Shown in pieces: positions 23,982 through 33,238 of a stretch of 43,847 nucleotides of DNA. Source of the stretch: Nanobdellota archaeon (lineage in GTDB: Archaea; Aenigmatarchaeota; Aenigmatarchaeia; QMZP01); contig JAHIRU010000009.1 in assembly GCA_018818465.1 (NCBI GenBank), positions 1 through 43,847 of the forward strand, given 5' to 3'. The position numbers were made by a program, and so were the translations under genes. The notes beneath the pieces are model-generated. The model was not told the origin of the DNA and ran no database searches. It was given only the letters and a program-made list of their open reading frames with translations. The first letter of the stretch is position 1. Every line of letters begins with the position of its first letter.

Positions 23982-25610
23982 CTAGTCACCACCTCTTAAC
24001 TTCTTATTTATTCTTTGTTTCGATTTCCAATAAATATGTTCTGTTATTAAACCATCTTTTTTGGCCTTTTCAAGATCTCTGAGTATTCTTTGAAGCTTTC
24101 TTTTGTCAGCTTCTGTTAATTTAGGCTTTAAAACTTTTTCCCTAAGATCTTTCACTTCCTCGTGTATCAGAGCTCTCTTTTCTGTTGTTACCTTCTTGAG
24201 CTCCTTCTTTTTGTGCCTATAATATAATATAGCTACAATGGTTAATAAAATAATTACTATTATTATGAAAATTAATGTCCACCACCAAGGAATAGGCTCA
24301 AATTCGTACCACTCTCTGACATTAACTATTACATCTTCCGATAGCTGCTTGTCGTCATACTTTCCAAATATCATAAAGCCAAACACGCCTGCTTTTGTCG
24401 GAGTTATGTTGAATGCATAGTTTACTCTCTCAAAAGCTGGAATGTTTATTTCTAGTTCTTTTGGTTCAAGATTCCAGTCTTCTGGAACAACCAAAGAAAG
24501 CGTTACATTCTTGTCTCTGAACAAGCTGTTCTCAACCATTACGTATATTGTGCTTTCATGATCTCTTCTCAATTCAGGTATCTCTACATCAACTATTTTT
24601 ATTATAGCTCCTTTTGGCCAATCAACTATTTCTAGATTTACTAGTTCTCTTTCAGTATCCTGATCAGAATCAACATGAATAAAGAGCCTATAAACCTTTT
24701 TTTCTGCATCATCAGGTATTTTGAATTTTATTATAAAGGTTTCTTCTTCTCCAGGGGTAATATCTGTTTCTACTGGATCAACAGTGTACCAGTTTATGTC
24801 AATCCCGTCTAATGTGACATAGACATCAGTTAATGCACCGTCACCAATGTTCTTCACTTTTACATATTCGTATTCAATTCCGCCCTGCTCTATTGTCATG
24901 GATTTTGGGTATTCTGTTATATTTATTTGGCCTCTGACTGATGGCGTACCTCCTCCGCCACCTCCGCCAGTACCGCTTCCAGTGCCTGCTGGCGGATTGT
25001 CCCAGTACAGTGTGTCCAGCATGCCGGGAGGCGTGACATTGAACAGCGCTCCGCTTGCCGCTTCGTCAGATGTGTTTACATAGTACCACATCGTGGTTTT
25101 TGCTGTTATGGATGCATCAAAAAAATTAACACCATATACTCCTGCTATCGGATAATTATATGTCATTTGAAGGGCATTCCATGTGGGGGTTGTTCTCCAA
25201 TAAAATGTAGCATTGAGCGTAGTGTTGCTCTGCTCTGCATCAAAAACATAAACCCAAAAATTCACGCTCTCTCCTGGAGCTGGATTGTTTTTATCTCTAT
25301 CTATATATGAACCAAGAAGAGGAACCCATTCTTTATAATAAGGGTTTTTATTGGCTGTAGTAGACGTGTTTGGCGCCCAAAACCCCCAATAGATAGTATA
25401 ATTATTGTCATTCGCACTGGACACAACTGATTGGCCTGCTGTAAATTCTGCATTGTAATCACCGTCTGTTACATTACCGCCTCCAGAACCCTGAACATCT
25501 GGATACAATATGAATTCACTATCAGACATTTCTGTTGCGCAGATTGTTTGTACTAAAAGAACGAGCGATAAAAAAAATATCAGAATCAGCTGTAAAGAAG
25601 CAGCTTTCAT
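23982..25610 (-). CDS. type I membrane-anchored surface protein with two CARDB/NEW3-like Ig domains and a Lys-rich cytoplasmic tail
   Basis: Signal peptide LQLILIFFLSLVLLVQTICA, Gly linker GTGSGTGGGGGGGTPS, two ...V.NxG...L.nV.v.l..P.dW...P-type modules, TM WWWTLIFIIIVIILLTIVAILYY. 3-nt gap to the giant gene. Confidence 0.75.
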   Translation of the reverse strand: MKAASLQLILIFFLSLVLLVQTICATEMSDSEFILYPDVQGSGGGNVTDGDYNAEFTAGQSVVSSANDNNYTIYWGFWAPNTSTTANKNPYYKEWVPLLGSYIDRDKNNPAPGESVNFWVYVFDAEQSNTTLNATFYWRTTPTWNALQMTYNYPIAGVYGVNFFDASITAKTTMWYYVNTSDEAASGALFNVTPPGMLDTLYWDNPPAGTGSGTGGGGGGGTPSVRGQINITEYPKSMTIEQGGIEYEYVKVKNIGDGALTDVYVTLDGIDINWYTVDPVETDITPGEEETFIIKFKIPDDAEKKVYRLFIHVDSDQDTERELVNLEIVDWPKGAIIKIVDVEIPELRRDHESTIYVMVENSLFRDKNVTLSLVVPEDWNLEPKELEINIPAFERVNYAFNITPTKAGVFGFMIFGKYDDKQLSEDVIVNVREWYEFEPIPWWWTLIFIIIVIILLTIVAILYYRHKKKELKKVTTEKRALIHEEVKDLREKVLKPKLTEADKRKLQRILRDLEKAKKDGLITEHIYWKSKQRINKKLRGGD

Positions 25611-25613
25611 TAT

Positions 25614-28600
25614 TTACCTCCCATACCTATACCAGAATCTGTAAGTTGTCGTTCCAACTGGTGGATTAACTGAACCAAAATCAACAGTCGCTTTCTGTGC
25701 ATCAACAGTAGGGATTGCTATTGGCAGACTGTTTATTGTCAGCTTGAATACATCACCAGTTGCTGATAATGGCCTGTTGGAAAGACCAAGCTTGTTTCCT
25801 ATGCCAACATAATACTGAGGTGATATTCCACCTATATAATTGCTAACTATTTTTGTCACGTTTGAAAATGCATAGCTTGTGTTATATGCTGTTGTTGTTG
25901 CGGTTACATCAACGGTTATTACCTCAAATATCCATCTTCCATCTGCGTCTAAACCGCTTATATTCACGTCTCCTGTTGTCTGGTCTATTCCCGATATTAC
26001 AGTCACTGTAATATCTCTTGGAACGTCTGGCTGATTTGCTATTACTGGATATAATGTTTCGTCTGCAAAACTTCGTTGTGTTATTAATTTGTCATCATCT
26101 GCCGCTGAAACCCTGTCATAAGTAGCTATTGTCGTGAATCCGCCTCTTATTCTTGTATCACTGCTCATTGTAAGGTTACCAGTCATAGTGTCGCCTGTTT
26201 CATTAACCCAACTATCTGCTACGCCTGCGTAACTTCCGCCTGATGAGCCTGTTTCAACAGTTCCATTAGACCAAATAACAACATCACCACTAGCAACAGA
26301 GTAATTGGCATCAACATTAATTGTTCCATTGCTGTATGCATAGAATCTATTATTCACGATTTCTAAATTATCAAATATACCACTTATACCTCTGAATATA
26401 TCACTGTATATTTTGCCCCACCATACGCTATCTGAGCCTATCCAGTAAGTTTTGTTCGCATCAAGGCTGGTCATATTATCGCCAGTAGTGTTAACGAATG
26501 TGTCTACTACTCCAGCATAACTTCCGCCAGACGAACCTGTTTCAATTGTGCCGTTACTCCATATGACAACGTCACCACCAAACACAGAGAAGTTTCCGCC
26601 CATGCTGATTGAACCGTTAGCATACAGCCACAACACATCGGATATGTTCAGTGAACCTGTCATTGTATCGCCTGTTGTGTTTACCCAATTATCAGCTACA
26701 CCAGTGTAACTGGATGATGATCCAGTTTCTATAGTGCCGTTGGACCATATGACTACGTCACCGCCTGATGCAGTAACATTGCCGACAGTCATTGTATCGA
26801 ATATGGCATTAACTGCGCGGATAGCGTCTGTCAGAATCTTTCCCCACCAAACACTGTCTGAACCAATCCAATACGTTTTGTTTGCATCAAGGCTTGTCAT
26901 ATTGTCGCCTGTAGTGTTAACGAATGTGTCTGTTAGTCCACCGTAAATTGTATCACTATCAACTACCTCAACTGTGCCATTGGACCATATGACTACGCCA
27001 GTTGGAACTGAATAGTTGCCATCAACATTAATCGATCCGTTAGGGTACAGGTATATCTTGCCTGAGATGTTGAGTTCCCCGGTCATATAATCGCCTGTCT
27101 CATTTACCCAATCATCTGCTACGCCACTGTAAATGGTATCAGCGTCTGTACCACATACAATATTACCACCTGCAACTGTTTCCAAACTACAGCCTTTGTA
27201 CAATATTAATTGGATACCTCCTGTGTCGTTAACAAAGAAATCACCGCTAACATTGAGCCCGTTATTAACTAATAAAGCACCGCCTGTGATATTCAAATCA
27301 CCAGTCATTGCGTCACCCGATGCATTAACGTAAGTATCACCAGTGGTTATGAATCCTGGCACACTGCTAATGTTGCCCCAAGCAAGTCTTGTCAAGAACC
27401 CGTTTATCCAGTTGCCATTCATTGTAAGGTTGCCTGTCATTGTGTCACCAGTAACATTTACCCAGTCATCAGCTACGCCGCCATAGCTGGCAGTTGCACC
27501 TGTTTCAATTGTGCCGTTACTCCATATGACAAAGTCTGTACCAACTGTAAAGTTGCCTGTTGTTTTTAGGTTAGCAGATACATTCAGGTCACCAGTCATT
27601 ATGTCACCTGTAGCATTTACTAGCAACCAATGTCTCAGAGTTATGTTTAATATGCCATCTTCTAAAGTTCCATTTAAGAACTGTTCGTCTGTTAACCATT
27701 CAGTTATCCTATAAAGTGTATTCAATCCTATTTCTGTTGTATAGCCTGCAGGCATTAGACCTCCTTGATCATTTGTGGCATATCTTGTAGCTGCATCATG
27801 ATCGTCTTGGTTTGCAAAATGCCAGCATATGTTTGTGATTGGATCGCATCCATTTAAATCTGTTAAAGTCCTATGCGAACCTATCAATGAAGCTATAATC
27901 CAAGCATCAACCGTGGCATCATAAGCATAAATCAATGATTCATCTTTCACGAAAACTGTCCAGCCTGATTGAGCTGACCTCATATCCCAGTCACCAGAAC
28001 TATTATATTCTGTTATATTGTTCTCATGTCCAGCCCATGCTCCTGTTGCTCCGCTTGATTGTGATTGTTCTGAGCTTATGCTCATGAATGAGGTGTCGTT
28101 GAACATTGTTTCGAATGTTTTATGTGCATTCAGATCTAACGCAATGTCAATTATCTGAAACTCGCGTATGGTTCCGCCGAAGAAATGTGTTGATGCAGAT
28201 GATTTCCCTCCACCTAAAAGTAATTTATCGTTTTTACCAGTATATCCTATTCCTCCATCCCCGCTATGGGCGTTCATTCCAACTTCTGTTCCAAGAGAGT
28301 CACTATGTTCTGCTGTGCCTACTAATGTTCCATTCAAATACATTGTAAAGTTGTTGTATTGGTCATTTGTGGATGTTTCACAAATTTCATTTCGGTCAGT
28401 GTCATCGCAACGGAAGACTGTTGTCACGACATAGTTGTCATGATTGGCTTCTATCGGTATTGTAAACCATTTACCACTGAATCCGTTGCTTATTGCCCAT
28501 GCTCCGCAAGTTATATTGCTGTTCTCTATATAGCAGTCCCATCCATTAACGGTTCCGCCTTCTGATGCAATGAATTGCCTTGTTGTTATGTCTGCTGATG

Positions 28601-31600
28601 TGTTGAACACTATTATATGAGTCCTGTTTCCGTATTCGCCTTCGCCCCAGTTTGATTCATAATAAGGCATGTTTTTTAGGTTGAAAGCATCATCTGTTCC
28701 GTCAAAATAAGTTCCATAGCCGTCTATCGAGGAAGCCAATGCAGGAAGTCCTACATATGTCGTGCTTCCAGAGCCTACATGCCTTGCATTGGTTGTTGAA
28801 TCCCATGAAAAGTATGAACCAGTTGGCGGAACTGCTGTAAAGTTCATGTGATAAACAAGACCGTAATTCTTTTTCCATGTGTTTTGTGCTGATGAAATAT
28901 CATACTGTGCACTTGCACCCGAGTAACCATAGTATGCGTAAATTGTTGTGTTTGCTGTGCTGTCAAGCAGGTCTAATTTTATCCAGAAAACCCCTGCAGG
29001 TATGCTTGAGTCATATAATTCCAGTTCTCCTGTTGTTATTTTTGTCTGACCGTCACTTTTTGTGAAGACAATGTCTGTGCCGTTAGCAAGTGCGTTTGTG
29101 AATACAGGGCTTCCTGGTGGGAAAGCAATCCTTATAGCATAATTACTCTCGTTTTTATATACATAAGTGCTGTCAATCTCTATTGGAACTCTATATGGCC
29201 ATCTCTGATCATACCAACTAGTCTGGCCAGCTATTATATATCTGTCTCCTACGCTTGGAGTGCCTGGTGGAGCGTTTAAATCCTTGTCCAATATAGGAAG
29301 CTTCCATGTACCGTTCAGTTGTGATGCTATTGCAGAACCAAGATATTCAAAAGCTCTTTCTGCATTTTCACTTAGCGTTGGGAAGAAATTTGCAGCATCT
29401 TTTAAGGTGACGTTTGATGCTGACAAGTTGCCTGTTATGTTGCCTAAAACAAGAAGGTTTTCATTAATTGTAACTGTATCGAATGTGGCTGTCACGCTTC
29501 TTACAATATCAGTCCATATCTTGCCAAACCATTCAGTTTGGTTGCCTAGCCAGTAGGTTTTGTTTGCGTTGACTGTTATGTTGCCTCTTAGGTCATCACC
29601 AGTTTCGTTGAGCCAATCGTCAGCAACGCCCGAATAAGATGATGATGAACCTGTTTCAACAGTTCCGTTAGACCATATCACAACGCCAGTTGGTACAGAG
29701 TAATTTCCATCAACATTGATTGTTCCGTTAGGGTACAAGTAAATATGTGCAGAAATGTTAAGTTCTCCTGTCATGTAGTCGCCAGTTGTGTTAACATAAC
29801 TATCTGTTGCACCGCCATAAATAGTATCGCTGTCAGTTGTTTCAACTGTGCCGTTAGACCATATGACAACAGTAGTCGGCACTGACAAATTACCGTCCAT
29901 TAAAATTGTTCCGTTTGGATACAGGTATATTTTATTGGATATATTGAGTTCTCCAGTCATTGTATCGCCTGTTTCATTGACCCAATCATCAGCTACGCCG
30001 CCGTAAACAGTATCGCTGTCAATTACTTCCACTGTGCCGTTAGACCAAATAACAAAGTCTGTACCAACTGTAAAGTTACCTGTTGTTTTTAGGTTAGCAG
30101 ATACATTCAGGTCACCAGTCATCACATCTCCTGATACATTAACGTAAGTATCACCAGTTGTGACAAATCCTGGTACACTGCTAATGTTGCCCCAAGCAAG
30201 TCTTGTCAAGAATCCGTTTATCCAGTTACCATTCATTGTAAGGTTACCTGTCATTGTGTCACCAGATTCATTTACCCAACTATCTGCTACGCCGCCGTAT
30301 ACGGTGTCACTGTCAATTACTTCCACAGTACCGTTAGACCAGATAACTACGCCAGTTGGGACAGACAAATTGCCATCCAAGTTGATTGTCCCGTTTGGAT
30401 ATAGGTATATTTTGCCTGATATATTGAGTTCACCTGTCATATAATCTCCGGTTTCGTTGACCCAACTGTCTGCTATGCCAGTGTAAATTGTATCATTATC
30501 AGCTACACAATGCAGTTCATCATTATCAAATCCTCTTACATAGTAACCCTCTGAACAATTAGCTGGGAAAGATGTTACATTACCCCAGGTTAAAGTTCCT
30601 ACAAAATAGTCAGCATATATATTTTTCCATTCTGCTGTAGGGCTACCTATGTCAAAAGTGCTTGTCAATTCTGGAAGAAATGTACCATTAAGATATTGGT
30701 TAGTTACAGTTGCATTTATGAAATCTCCTATTACTGTGAGATTGCCTTGTATTATTAAATCTCCAGTCATTGTGTCGCCTGTTATGTTGACCCAATCATC
30801 AGCTACGCCACCATAAATTGTGTCGCTATCCACAACTTCAACAGTACCATTGGACCAAATAACTACGCCAGTTGGGACAGACAAATTGCCATCCAAGTTG
30901 ATTGTCCCGTTTGGATATAGGTATATTTTGCCTGATATATTGAGTTCACCTGTCATATAATCTCCGGTTTCGTTAATCCAATCATCAGCTACTCCACCGT
31001 ATATTGTGTCACTATCAATTACTTCCACTGTACCGTTAGACCAGATAACAACATCACCGCCTGATGCAGTAACATTGCCAACTGTCATTGTATCGAATAT
31101 AGCATTGACTGCACGGATAGTGTCTGTCAGTATCTTGCCCCACCAAACACTGTCTGAACCAATCCAGTAAGTTGCATTAGCATCTAGGCTTGTCATGTTG
31201 TCGCCTGTAGTGTTAACGAATGTATCTGTTAGTCCACCGTAAATTGTGTCGCTGTCAATAACTTCTACTGTGCCGTTAGACCATATGACAACTCCGCTAG
31301 GAACAGAATAGTTGCCGTCAACGTTGATTGTTCCATTTGGATAAAGATAGATCTTCCCAGATATGTTAAGCTCGCCTGTCATGTAGTCTCCTGTTTCGTT
31401 AACCCAGTTATCTGCTACACCGCTATATGTTGTTCCTGCAGCTGTTTCAACTGTTCCGTTAGACCAGATGACAACATCACCGCTGAATACCGAGAAGTTA
31501 CCACCCATGCTGATTGAACCGTTAGCATAGAGCCATAATGCATCGCTGATGTTCAGTGAACCAGTCATTGTGTCGCCTGTTGTGTTGACCCAATTATCCG

Positions 31601-33170
31601 CTACGCCACCGTAAATAGTGTCATTATCAGCTACACAATGCAGTTCATCATTATCAAATCCTCTTACATAGTAACCCTCTGAACAATTGACTGGGAAGCT
31701 TGTTATATTACCCCATGTTAAAGCTCCTACAAAATAGTCAGCATATATATTTTTCCATTCTGCTGTAGGGCTACCTATGTCAAAAGTGCTTGTCAATTCT
31801 GGAAGAAATGTACCATTAAGATATTGGTTAGCTACAGTTGCATTTATGTAATCTCCTATTACTGTGAGATTGCCTTGTATTATTAAATCTCCTGTCATTG
31901 TGTCGCCTGTTATGTTAACCCAATCATCAGCTACGCCACCATATATTGTGTCACTATCCACTACCTCAACTGTGCCGTTAGACCATATAACTACGCCAGT
32001 TGGTACTCTGTAATCACCATCAACAAGGATTGTACCGTTCGGATACAAGTAAATCTTACTTGATATGTTCAACTCACCGGTCATGGTATCACCAGTTATA
32101 TTGACCCAACTATCAACTACGCCTCCATAAATTGTGTCACTATCAGTTGTTTCAATTGTGCCGTTGGACCAGATAACCACAGTTGTAGGTACAGATATGT
32201 TGCCGTCAACATTAATCGAACCGTTAGGGTATAGGTAAATATTGCCAGAAATATTCAATTCTCCAGTCATATAATCTCCGGTTTCATTGACCCAGTCATC
32301 AGCTATGCCACCATAAGAACTAGTAGCATCTGTTTCAACTGTTCCGTTACTCCATATCACAACTGCACCACCAAACACTGAGAAGTTGCCACCCATGCTG
32401 ATTGAACCGTTAGCATACAGCCACAACGCATCGGATATGTTTAATGAACCAGTCATTGTATCGCCTGTTGTGTTTATCCAGTTATCAGCTACACCACCAT
32501 AGAACTGAGTTGTTTCAATTGTGCCGTTGGACCAAATAACAGTGTCACCGCTAGGGATTGTAACATTGCCAACTCCTATGGAATCGAATAAGCCACTAAC
32601 ACCTCTGAAAATGTCGCTGTAAATTTTGCCGAACCACTCTGTTTCATTGCCTAGCCAGTATGTCTTGTTAGCATTGACAGTTAGGTTGCCTGCTAGATCA
32701 TCACCAGCGACTGCAACAAAATAACTGGAGTCTTTTCCGTCAAGCAAATCGGTGTTGTTCGTATAGAACGAATAAGCAGATGTTGTTACTCTTCTTCTTG
32801 GTGTCATTTCAGAATTGTCATTAACTTGTATGCTTAACCAATAATTTTGAGTAAAGTTTAAATCAATTGTTGTGTTGGTTCCCAAAACAATATGCCATAC
32901 ACCGTTTGTTACAGAAACGTTTAGATGGCCTTCATCCCAAATGTCTGTTCCCCCGGTTTCAGCTGTGTATATTCTGAATGTAAAATTATGTGTTCCGTTT
33001 ATTGTGTTACCTGATGTAGAATTAACAAGCCTGCCTTGCTGTGTTATGTAAGCTGGTACAGCAGATACAATTACAGGAACAATTAAGAATGACAAAAAAA
33101 CTGAAACGATAAAAATTCTTCTAAAAGAATCCTTTAAAGAATTCATGAATATTATATAGTTACCTAACAT
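25614..33170 (-). CDS. giant (2518 aa) repetitive secreted/surface protein with tail-fibre-like repeat arrays flanking a DUF2341/LamG-like core
   Basis: N-terminal anchor/signal IFIVSVFLSFLIVPVIVSA. 17 copies of VVIWSNGT(V/I)E and about 23 copies of (T/S)GDxMTGxLN. Central WPYRVPIEID...GTDIVFT...ELELYD...VFWIKL...TIYAYYGY (DUF2341-like) followed by a ConA/LamG-like block (about 29201-28130). Dense N-x-S/T sequons. An alternative ATG is at 33146. Confidence 0.9.
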   Translation of the reverse strand: MLGNYIIFMNSLKDSFRRIFIVSVFLSFLIVPVIVSAVPAYITQQGRLVNSTSGNTINGTHNFTFRIYTAETGGTDIWDEGHLNVSVTNGVWHIVLGTNTTIDLNFTQNYWLSIQVNDNSEMTPRRRVTTSAYSFYTNNTDLLDGKDSSYFVAVAGDDLAGNLTVNANKTYWLGNETEWFGKIYSDIFRGVSGLFDSIGVGNVTIPSGDTVIWSNGTIETTQFYGGVADNWINTTGDTMTGSLNISDALWLYANGSISMGGNFSVFGGAVVIWSNGTVETDATSSYGGIADDWVNETGDYMTGELNISGNIYLYPNGSINVDGNISVPTTVVIWSNGTIETTDSDTIYGGVVDSWVNITGDTMTGELNISSKIYLYPNGTILVDGDYRVPTGVVIWSNGTVEVVDSDTIYGGVADDWVNITGDTMTGDLIIQGNLTVIGDYINATVANQYLNGTFLPELTSTFDIGSPTAEWKNIYADYFVGALTWGNITSFPVNCSEGYYVRGFDNDELHCVADNDTIYGGVADNWVNTTGDTMTGSLNISDALWLYANGSISMGGNFSVFSGDVVIWSNGTVETAAGTTYSGVADNWVNETGDYMTGELNISGKIYLYPNGTINVDGNYSVPSGVVIWSNGTVEVIDSDTIYGGLTDTFVNTTGDNMTSLDANATYWIGSDSVWWGKILTDTIRAVNAIFDTMTVGNVTASGGDVVIWSNGTVEVIDSDTIYGGVADDWINETGDYMTGELNISGKIYLYPNGTINLDGNLSVPTGVVIWSNGTVEVVDSDTIYGGVADDWVNITGDTMTGDLIIQGNLTVIGDFINATVTNQYLNGTFLPELTSTFDIGSPTAEWKNIYADYFVGTLTWGNVTSFPANCSEGYYVRGFDNDELHCVADNDTIYTGIADSWVNETGDYMTGELNISGKIYLYPNGTINLDGNLSVPTGVVIWSNGTVEVIDSDTVYGGVADSWVNESGDTMTGNLTMNGNWINGFLTRLAWGNISSVPGFVTTGDTYVNVSGDVMTGDLNVSANLKTTGNFTVGTDFVIWSNGTVEVIDSDTVYGGVADDWVNETGDTMTGELNISNKIYLYPNGTILMDGNLSVPTTVVIWSNGTVETTDSDTIYGGATDSYVNTTGDYMTGELNISAHIYLYPNGTINVDGNYSVPTGVVIWSNGTVETGSSSSYSGVADDWLNETGDDLRGNITVNANKTYWLGNQTEWFGKIWTDIVRSVTATFDTVTINENLLVLGNITGNLSASNVTLKDAANFFPTLSENAERAFEYLGSAIASQLNGTWKLPILDKDLNAPPGTPSVGDRYIIAGQTSWYDQRWPYRVPIEIDSTYVYKNESNYAIRIAFPPGSPVFTNALANGTDIVFTKSDGQTKITTGELELYDSSIPAGVFWIKLDLLDSTANTTIYAYYGYSGASAQYDISSAQNTWKKNYGLVYHMNFTAVPPTGSYFSWDSTTNARHVGSGSTTYVGLPALASSIDGYGTYFDGTDDAFNLKNMPYYESNWGEGEYGNRTHIIVFNTSADITTRQFIASEGGTVNGWDCYIENSNITCGAWAISNGFSGKWFTIPIEANHDNYVVTTVFRCDDTDRNEICETSTNDQYNNFTMYLNGTLVGTAEHSDSLGTEVGMNAHSGDGGIGYTGKNDKLLLGGGKSSASTHFFGGTIREFQIIDIALDLNAHKTFETMFNDTSFMSISSEQSQSSGATGAWAGHENNITEYNSSGDWDMRSAQSGWTVFVKDESLIYAYDATVDAWIIASLIGSHRTLTDLNGCDPITNICWHFANQDDHDAATRYATNDQGGLMPAGYTTEIGLNTLYRITEWLTDEQFLNGTLEDGILNITLRHWLLVNATGDIMTGDLNVSANLKTTGNFTVGTDFVIWSNGTIETGATASYGGVADDWVNVTGDTMTGNLTMNGNWINGFLTRLAWGNISSVPGFITTGDTYVNASGDAMTGDLNITGGALLVNNGLNVSGDFFVNDTGGIQLILYKGCSLETVAGGNIVCGTDADTIYSGVADDWVNETGDYMTGELNISGKIYLYPNGSINVDGNYSVPTGVVIWSNGTVEVVDSDTIYGGLTDTFVNTTGDNMTSLDANKTYWIGSDSVWWGKILTDAIRAVNAIFDTMTVGNVTASGGDVVIWSNGTIETGSSSSYTGVADNWVNTTGDTMTGSLNISDVLWLYANGSISMGGNFSVFGGDVVIWSNGTIETGSSGGSYAGVVDTFVNTTGDNMTSLDANKTYWIGSDSVWWGKIYSDIFRGISGIFDNLEIVNNRFYAYSNGTINVDANYSVASGDVVIWSNGTVETGSSGGSYAGVADSWVNETGDTMTGNLTMSSDTRIRGGFTTIATYDRVSAADDDKLITQRSFADETLYPVIANQPDVPRDITVTVISGIDQTTGDVNISGLDADGRWIFEVITVDVTATTTAYNTSYAFSNVTKIVSNYIGGISPQYYVGIGNKLGLSNRPLSATGDVFKLTINSLPIAIPTVDAQKATVDFGSVNPPVGTTTYRFWYRYGR
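30345..30974. repeat. exact 114-nt direct repeat inside the giant gene
   Basis: 30345-30458 and 30861-30974 are identical (aactacgccagttgggacagacaaattgcc...ataatctccggtttcgtt), offset 516 nt = 172 codons. Confidence 0.9.
30493..31963. repeat. about 340-nt near-identical direct repeat inside the giant gene
   Basis: 30493-about 30835 and 31621-about 31963 differ at only a handful of positions, offset 1128 nt = 376 codons. A further about 193-nt pair (26759-26951 vs 31055-31247) is roughly 90% identical. Confidence 0.85.
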
Positions 33171-33238
33171 ATAAAATTTAGTTAACTTAGTGACAACTAA
33201 CCAATTATTTTATTACTCTGTAACTTCAAAATAAAGTT

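Follow-up and report, generated by a model that had tools for sequence, protein, structure and literature searches.

What is a repetitive protein of 2518 residues doing among the housekeeping genes of a Nanobdellota archaeon that probably depends on a host? The question is raised by P0001, the giant open reading frame (ORF) of contig JAHIRU010000009.1 (assembly GCA_018818465.1), whose whole stretch of 43,847 nucleotides (nt) is the window analyzed here. The frame had been described, together with several of its features, from the letters alone (the sequence-only reading, below), and it is indeed intact, running for 2518 uninterrupted codons on the minus strand. We consider it probable that P0001 is a gene of the chromosome whose product is a surface attachment fibre, exported by Sec and heavily N-glycosylated, in which a cellular stalk carries a virus-type fibre. 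The bolder version is that a DPANN archaeon joined an entire tailed-virus fibre (the DUF2793 adaptor with its nested lectin, a shaft, and an exchangeable tip) to a cellular stalk exported by Sec, and that it holds its host by means of viral receptor-binding parts; this we put forward tentatively and with considerable doubt. That DPANN archaea have giant LamG surface proteins is already established, as is the presumed role of these in host contact, LamG-bearing proteins of this kind being predicted to mediate host attachment (PMC10266531). New here are a split DUF2793 domain, a virus-associated family of tip domains, and the chimera of stalk and virus fibre.

One part with evidence of virus kinship is the middle of the protein, the “knob”. 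A Pfam scan of P0001 returned DUF2793 and DUF2341 only, and no VirB4/TraG-like ATPase domain. DUF2793 (PF10983), a domain of ~87 residues, scores 42.9 bits (E 4.6e-11), above its gathering threshold of 27 bits, but the match at residues 1706–1753 covers profile positions 38–84 only; positions 15–40 are found, in the excised core, at residues 1292–1317, so that the domain is not contiguous and its two parts lie ~385 residues apart. We joined residues 1284–1315 to 1702–1768 and compared the resulting 99-residue query with 50,697 phage records: 100 of them matched, each in one piece, at 40–46% identity and with E values down to 5e-14. In the best 20 matches, the alignment crosses the junction and takes in 80% or more of the query (e.g., query 2–85 against ~80 phage residues). 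Since the spliced halves match phage DUF2793 unbroken, ~385 residues have been inserted into the domain. The tail fibres of phages have DUF2793 at the N-terminus, as the part that attaches to the particle (PMC5026251; bioRxiv 10.1101/150227). The matched genes are those DUF2793 genes that often go under the mistaken name “ribonuclease III”; they are tail-fibre genes (Hynes et al., PMC5026251), and their products are virion components in which the N-terminal attachment domain is conserved and the C-termini vary (Harvey et al., bioRxiv 10.1101/150227). The “ribonuclease III” label persists on DUF2793 tail-fibre genes in several deposited phage genomes, among them KP162168.1, OK283305.1, and KY606587.1.

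The insert contains the motif WPYRVPIEID, which starts at residue 1325 (~nt 29198), where the sequence-only reading had placed it, and it holds the DUF2341 and LamG-type block that the same reading had recognized. DUF2341 (PF10102, cut-off 23.4 bits) is clear in the homologues P0039, P0009, and P0002 (39.6, 31.5, and 26.2 bits) but borderline in P0001, with 23.0 bits for the whole protein and 26.0 bits for the excised core. The LamG assignment comes from P0009, where Laminin_G_3 scores 6e-17 at the position homologous to the P0001 block, the BLAST alignment covering only the two flanks of that stretch. Family profiles of the block match only chains of the ConA/LamG fold in the PDB, if weakly: 4qvs_A (2e-7), the pentraxin 3flp_A (0.0075), and lectins; the whole of P0001 returned zero matches when compared with the PDB by phmmer. 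What the earlier reading had overlooked is that DUF2793 is interrupted by the lectin block, and that the C-terminal domain belongs to a virus-associated family.

P0039, a protein of 866 residues that has no signal peptide, runs colinear with P0001 over residues 1289–1822 (37% identity, 8e-79) and 2326–2501 (36%, 1e-16) of the latter; the outer half of P0001 can thus be seen as a compact fibre that has been stretched. A viral origin of P0039 is suggested only by its missing signal peptide and by an N-terminus that it has in common with P0034; a pattern search for P0039 in viral contigs gave no match. P0009 (2300 residues), also without a signal peptide, has the same nested DUF2793[DUF2341-LamG] knob and is encoded just after terminase and portal genes on a tailed-virus contig. 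Its locus is L056 8013–14915, on a JGI 3300022874 contig, with a radical SAM gene further downstream, past a small ORF. The closest knob homologue, P0002, has a signal peptide and the base domain described below; the contigs that encode it (L054 and L055) otherwise carry many ORFs of 30–90 residues and a protein of 1014 residues, and no PHROG family was matched on the P0002 and P0006 contigs. The P0002 locus may belong to a virus, to another mobile element, or to a DPANN variable region. Presence in close relatives was sampled at locus L003 (see below) and at P0015, a protein of 1980 residues in a “Nanoarchaeota” metagenome-assembled genome (MAG). P0015 has the signal peptide, base domain, and 62-residue repeats of P0001, its aligned N-terminal 380 residues being 68% identical (76% mean column identity), while its center and end differ.

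The other virus-associated part is the tip. As had been noticed from the letters, a distinct C-terminal domain of ~180 residues is present: the last 184 residues have homologues of their own, and profile searches place them in no Pfam or PHROG family. Among 1.84 billion representatives, 284 homologues were found at E ≤ 1e-3 and 41 at ≤ 1e-10, covering query residues ~10–181. In 138 of the 150 top homologues, the domain ends within 20 residues of the C-terminus; these proteins are 128–942 residues long (38 of them at most 250). In tailed-virus contigs, genes for stand-alone forms of 180–230 residues come immediately behind that of the major head protein, as in the Mu-like head module of L002 and in L007 and L008; the same order was found in 11 of 41 loci when three capsid proteins were compared by BLAST, and in 10/10 of the remaining loci sampled with PHROG. 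From this post-capsid position, the product may be a head decoration or a head fibre. The only one of the 50,697 deposited phage genomes to contain the family, which occurs in dozens of uncultured virus contigs, is Microcystis phage Mwe-Yong1112-1 (MZ436628.1 19540–20088), where QXN68005.1, labelled “hypothetical”, comes directly after the protein annotated as major capsid; it is 36% identical to the P0001 tip, with an E value of 1e-4 directly and stronger support through intermediates. The virus contigs that carry this unannotated post-capsid family of 180–230 residues are L002, L007–L046, and L068, besides that one cultured cyanophage. Single-protein queries located members of the family; of the queries with tip-family alignments, A2 gave 0 loci against viral contigs and A3 gave 5 against metagenome contigs.

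In an AlphaFold2 model built from a 32-sequence alignment, the tip is all-beta, with a predicted local distance difference test (pLDDT) score of 72–96. Foldseek found no convincing solved counterpart in the PDB, only weak jelly-roll-type matches (infectious bursal disease virus VP2, nucleoplasmin, and PirA; E ~1e-3 to 1e-4); the best fold matches in BFVD are uncharacterized Caudovirales proteins of ~200–270 residues (E 6e-8 to 1e-4, template modeling score 0.45–0.56 on the target). The tip also appears exchangeable: the 350-residue N-terminal module of P0019 recurs in 10 virus contigs, and as only that part matches, the C-terminal parts apparently differ. P0042, a protein of 7152 residues from the representative library, has 14 separate stretches that match tip residues 45–82; the domain can thus occur in part as an internal repeat.

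The inner half of P0001 has other relatives. The base domain matches no Pfam family and, by tblastn, none of the phage records, and is found instead in P0002 (40% identity), in a Woesearchaeota MAG, and in secreted bacterial proteins (Endomicrobiales, Pyrinomonadaceae, and Phycisphaerales MAGs), lying immediately behind the signal peptide in all five bacterial homologues. An N-terminal hydrophobic stretch occurs in 17 of the 150 tip-family proteins. One secreted protein of 700 residues, P0113, has both the base domain by BLAST (27% identity, 4e-4) and the same tip as P0001; in the short, signal-peptide-bearing P0094, an N-terminal motif is similar to the base domain by eye only. From this pairing, base plus tip would be a recurring design of secreted cellular fibres, whereas knob plus tip is common with viruses.

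Export of P0001 itself is indicated by hydropathy, in which the single hydrophobic segment of the whole protein, the N-terminal signal or anchor of the sequence-only reading, lies at residues 15–44, with none past residue 44. A corresponding segment is present in the secreted relatives P0015, P0002, P0078, P0029, P0094, and P0113, and the mature N-terminus (V/F)PAYITQQG of P0001 aligns to P0015 directly after the ISA site of the latter. P0001 is therefore predicted to be exported and its signal cleaved. Two start codons are candidates, M1 (33170) and M9 (33146; window 33140–33180). A TATA-like element, TTTTATAT, lies 23–30 nt upstream of the second ATG, a position that would fit a leaderless transcript beginning at M9.

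Glycosylation is suggested by composition. The “dozens” of N-x-S/T sequons noted earlier amount to 141, against 43.6 ± 5.7 (maximum 67) in 2000 shuffles, a 3.2-fold enrichment over composition, and they are unevenly spread: 7.3 and 7.0 per 100 residues in shafts 1 and 2, but 2.5 in the core and, in the C-terminal domain, 1.6. We infer that the shafts are glycan-coated spacers and the other two regions bare globular modules. P0001 contains 12 cysteines in total.

The shafts are built on a canonical 62-residue unit, WVNxTGDxMTGELNISxKIYLYPNGTINVDGNxSVPxGVVIWSNGTVExxDSDTIYGGVADD. Cutting P0001 at the W-V-N-x-T-G-D anchors yields this unit and variant modules of 80, 110, 44, and 54 residues, which recur in both halves. 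There are 22 anchors of the form [WFY][VIL]Nx[TS]GD, and the ~23 copies of (T/S)GDxMTGxLN in the sequence-only reading are borne out as 20 strict [TS]GDx[ML][TR]G motifs and three copies degenerated to TGDNMTS. Its 17 copies of VVIWSNGT(V/I)E…DSDTIYGG hold for the IWSNGT core (n = 17), but the exact V[VI]IWSNGT[VI]E occurs 14 times and DSDT[IV]YGG only nine. The duplicated Cys-containing module was correctly seen: CSEGYYVRGFDNDELHCV occurs twice, at residues 496 and 872. The 44-residue module, at residues 965–1008 (nt 30147–30278) and 1903–1946 (nt 27333–27464), carries the motif LAWGNISSVPGF(V/I)TTGDT, which we take to resemble xxWxNIxxxPxGFADG, presumably common in bacterial secreted “tail fiber domain-containing” proteins with the same type of N-terminal domain.

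These repeats are old, are under purifying selection, and show no recent expansion. The nine exact 62-residue units have a mean amino acid identity of 70% (up to 95%), with half of the identical residues encoded by differing codons; their nonsynonymous divergence (dN) is 0.02–0.2 and their synonymous divergence (dS) ~2 or saturated, for a median dN/dS of 0.10 (NG86). At the DNA level, the copies are 64–92% identical and Tandem Repeats Finder reports none. On all three counts (DNA divergence, the empty Tandem Repeats Finder output, and low dN with saturated dS), the repeats are not an assembly artefact.

The autocorrelation of P0001 has its peak at 62 residues and weak sub-peaks at 20 and 41 residues, and it is at most suggestive that each unit may comprise three turns or segments of ~20 residues, each opening with [WY]xN[GE]T. 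A beta-helix, to which these sub-peaks and a weak, sub-threshold Bactofilin match (5e-4) would point, is not claimed for the shafts, because the monomer model there has a pLDDT of 35–69 and allows no fold assignment. The shafts would span roughly 35–40 nm if solenoid-like, and the protein ~100 nm if packed like phage fibres.

The sequence-only reading had also called these repeats phage-tail-fibre-like and the protein fibre-like. Three 62-residue units were unmatched by tblastn in the phage records and the tail-fibre matches in PHROG are weak (2e-5 to 1e-3), so for the repeats the likeness holds at the motif level. A kinship of the protein with tailed-virus fibre proteins is real, carried by DUF2793, by the colinearity with P0039, and by the C-terminal domain shared with virus proteins.

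Features of P0001 and of its two downstream neighbors in the window, with their evidence
Feature	Residues	Nucleotides	Strand	Basis or remarks
P0001, whole giant ORF	1–2518	25614–33170	(-)	2518 aa; alternative start M9 at 33146
Sec-type signal peptide or N-terminal anchor	1–37	33060–33170	(-)	hydropathy; predicted cleavage after VSA
Base domain	38–140	32751–33059	(-)	directly after signal peptide; homologues P0015, P0002, others
Shaft 1	141–1283	29322–32750	(-)	62-aa units and variant modules; sequon density, autocorrelation
First 110-aa Cys-containing module	417–526	31593–31922	(-)	93% aa identical to second copy
Second 110-aa Cys-containing module	793–902	30465–30794	(-)	copy of first module
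N-terminal half of split DUF2793 (...PILDKDLNAPPGTPSVGDRYIIAG)	1284–1317	29220–29321	(-)	Pfam profile positions 15–40; splice test crosses junction
Insert within DUF2793	1318–1702	28065–29219	(-)	DUF2341 1363–1424 (nt 28899–29084) and LamG/ConA-like block ~1430–1700 (nt 28071–28883)
C-terminal half of DUF2793 (GATGAWAGHENNITEY...DAWI)	1703–1760	27891–28064	(-)	Pfam 42.9 bits, 4.6e-11, profile positions 38–84
Conserved linker (SHRTLTDL...ATRYATNDQGGLMPAG...)	1761–1849	27624–27890	(-)	common to P0002, P0039, P0009
Shaft 2	1850–2334	26169–27623	(-)	repeat family as in shaft 1
C-terminal all-beta domain (tip)	2335–2518	25617–26168	(-)	unannotated virus-associated family; ~175 aa
P0013		23982–25610	(-)	542 aa; signal peptide, CARDB/NEW3-like domains, one C-proximal transmembrane helix, charged cytoplasmic tail
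P0014		23664–23981	(-)	105-aa cytoplasmic coiled-coil protein; abuts P0013 without gap; system membership uncertain
Note: aa, amino acids. Residues are those of P0001.

The giant gene lies among housekeeping genes: arginyl-tRNA synthetase, a class I aminoacyl-tRNA synthetase, a PurF-like protein, Kae1/TsaD, FEN1, and inositol-phosphate synthase. Virus hallmark genes (capsid, portal, and terminase) were not seen in the 16 window ORFs scanned with Pfam. P0013 begins 3 nt past the stop of the giant gene; a Shine-Dalgarno-like GGGAGGT (GGAGG) lies within the last codons of the latter, 7 nt ahead of the P0013 ATG (window 25608–25625), and this position indicates translational coupling. A P0013 homologue is encoded directly upstream of P0015 in another genome, with a CARDB-like domain 54% identical over 113 residues (E 1e-35) and a similar transmembrane helix and tail; no P0014 homologue was seen beside P0015. 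P0013 and P0014 were considered as obligatory partners of the fibre, an idea weakened by L003, whose tip is 85% identical to that of P0001, and rescued in part, for P0013, by the neighbor of P0015.

What has been observed is the domain map, the split domain, the virus kinship, repeats under purifying selection, a housekeeping setting, and a conserved neighbor. We propose the following model. From the cell outwards, the base domain behind the signal peptide would be followed by the first shaft, ~1,100 residues of 62-residue repeats, and then by the knob, in which the phage tail-fibre adaptor DUF2793 carries the inserted DUF2341 and LamG-type lectin-like module. Beyond the knob would come the second shaft (~480 residues) and then the tip, a beta-sandwich domain of 175 residues. 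The glycosylated shafts would serve as spacers, and the sequon-poor LamG insert and tip would bind glycans or proteins of another cell, most likely the host of the DPANN archaeon. The CARDB-like membrane protein P0013 may be the anchor or a partner. Export and cleavage, glycosylation, orientation, oligomeric state, ligand, and the host-attachment role itself are what we infer, rather than observe, in this scheme.

Several results weigh against it. The whole-protein score of P0001 for DUF2341 is 23.0 bits, under the cut-off, and in a direct Pfam scan the protein itself is below the LamG thresholds (PF13385 and PF02210). A model of the central block (residues 1186–1905, 6-sequence alignment) has a mean pLDDT of 36.9 and is unusable, leaving sequence homology as the basis for the lectin fold; the shaft model, as said, resolves no fold either. 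The C-terminus (…TTTYRFWYRYGR) has no hydrophobic stretch and no PGF-CTERM or other retention signal as judged from the sequence end and hydropathy, and without such an anchor the protein could be released. Conserved C-termini on variable N-termini mean that the tip could be an anchoring or assembly domain instead, so the polarity is uncertain; the capsid-binding C-terminus of T4 Hoc is a parallel for such an anchoring tip. Finally, the genes downstream in L003 are unrelated to P0013 and P0014, and the partner is therefore not universal.

How well the fibre model stands is best judged against what else such a protein might be. It might be a structural component of the envelope, an S-layer-type or sheath glycoprotein whose repeats build a lattice or coat, and no adhesin; for this speak its signal peptide, its large size, and its extreme density of sequons. 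The base-shaft-knob-shaft-tip layout, however, is colinear with P0039, a fibre-like protein without a signal peptide; the payload is swapped in P0015, where the same base and repeats carry another center and end, which is unusual in a lattice protein; and P0001 is without a C-terminal anchor. We consider an envelope component improbable. The modules did not emerge as S-layer/PKD-type domains, the outcome that the sequence-only reading had set against its own proposal. A virion tail fibre left by an integrated or recently degraded provirus, and so not a cellular protein at all, would account for DUF2793, the nested core, and the tip that the outer half has in common with virus-contig proteins, but it sits poorly with a signal peptide that neither P0039 nor the virus-contig protein P0009 has, with an N-terminal half that found no match in the phage records, and with housekeeping flanks in which the Pfam scan of 16 window ORFs revealed no hallmark gene; we regard it as very improbable indeed.

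The target of a fibre is a separate matter. P0001 might attach to something other than a host (biofilm polysaccharide, mineral surfaces, or kin cells), or be a decoy or shield that engages viruses via the same binding modules. In favor are the pairing of base and tip in the short, signal-peptide-bearing proteins P0094 and P0113, the secreted proteins of bacterial MAGs that have the base domain alone, and the binding modules common with viruses. We have no direct counter-argument, but such a reading is less specific, and published views of DPANN LamG proteins favor host contact (PMC10266531); we think it possible, though rather unlikely. The attachment fibre of cellular stalk and virus-type fibre remains the reading that we prefer.

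The preferred reading matters because how DPANN archaea recognize and hold their hosts is largely unknown, the candidates being mostly “large LamG proteins”, and P0001 is a candidate that has now been dissected. Its nested LamG insert and its tip are two defined, sequon-poor globular modules, open to expression and binding tests. Cellular surface fibres and tailed-virus fibres draw from one pool of modules, and two features are defined here that the libraries leave unannotated: the domain-in-domain DUF2793, and a virus-associated domain of ~175 residues at the ends of fibres and after the major capsid gene. If the fusion of a virus fibre to a stalk is true, the tip would give a first access to the function of an unannotated, widespread family that occurs on viral fibre ends and beside capsid genes.

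Comparison with known systems shows where P0001 belongs and where it departs from each of them. Archaeal S-layer glycoproteins share with it the signal peptide and many sequons, but differ in having a C-terminal transmembrane anchor or a PGF-CTERM/archaeosortase signal. Closer are the LamG/PKD surface proteins and “SPEARE”-type giants of DPANN archaea (PMC10266531), which P0001 resembles as a 7.6-kb gene for a Sec-exported, probably glycosylated protein with a LamG-type module in a small-genome DPANN archaeon. The SPEARE-type giants of Nanohaloarchaeota, however, have ~9 thousand residues against 2.5 thousand in P0001, which lacks both an ATPase domain of the VirB4/TraG-like kind (by Pfam) and C-terminal transmembrane helices; in place of the Ig/FN3 arrays of the DPANN giants it has a private 62-residue repeat, and its outer half is virus-fibre-like. 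DUF2341 proteins have been linked to archaeal type IV pili (MJ1470-type; PMC4858521) and to large exoproteins of Patescibacteria (PMC11809585), and like them P0001 has DUF2341 beside a ConA/LamG-like module, in an extracellular protein of large size from a cell that is ultrasmall or archaeal. It differs from them in that it has no class III (pilin-type) signal peptide and no nearby pilus genes, and in that its DUF2341 is nested in DUF2793.

With the tail fibres found on tailed phages and on gene transfer agents (RcGTA Rcc00171; Pseudomonas phage DMS3 gp49 and JBD26 gp59), P0001 shares the DUF2793 family and the order of parts, a variable shaft and a C-terminal module following DUF2793. There, the domain is N-terminal and part of a virion protein whose gene lies in a tail-gene module; in P0001 it stands in mid-protein, with an insert of ~385 residues, behind a signal peptide, and is encoded in the chromosome among housekeeping genes. 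The post-capsid viral proteins such as QXN68005.1, finally, are proteins of ~180–230 residues encoded in head-gene modules, whereas in P0001 the homologous domain caps a cellular protein of 2,518 residues.

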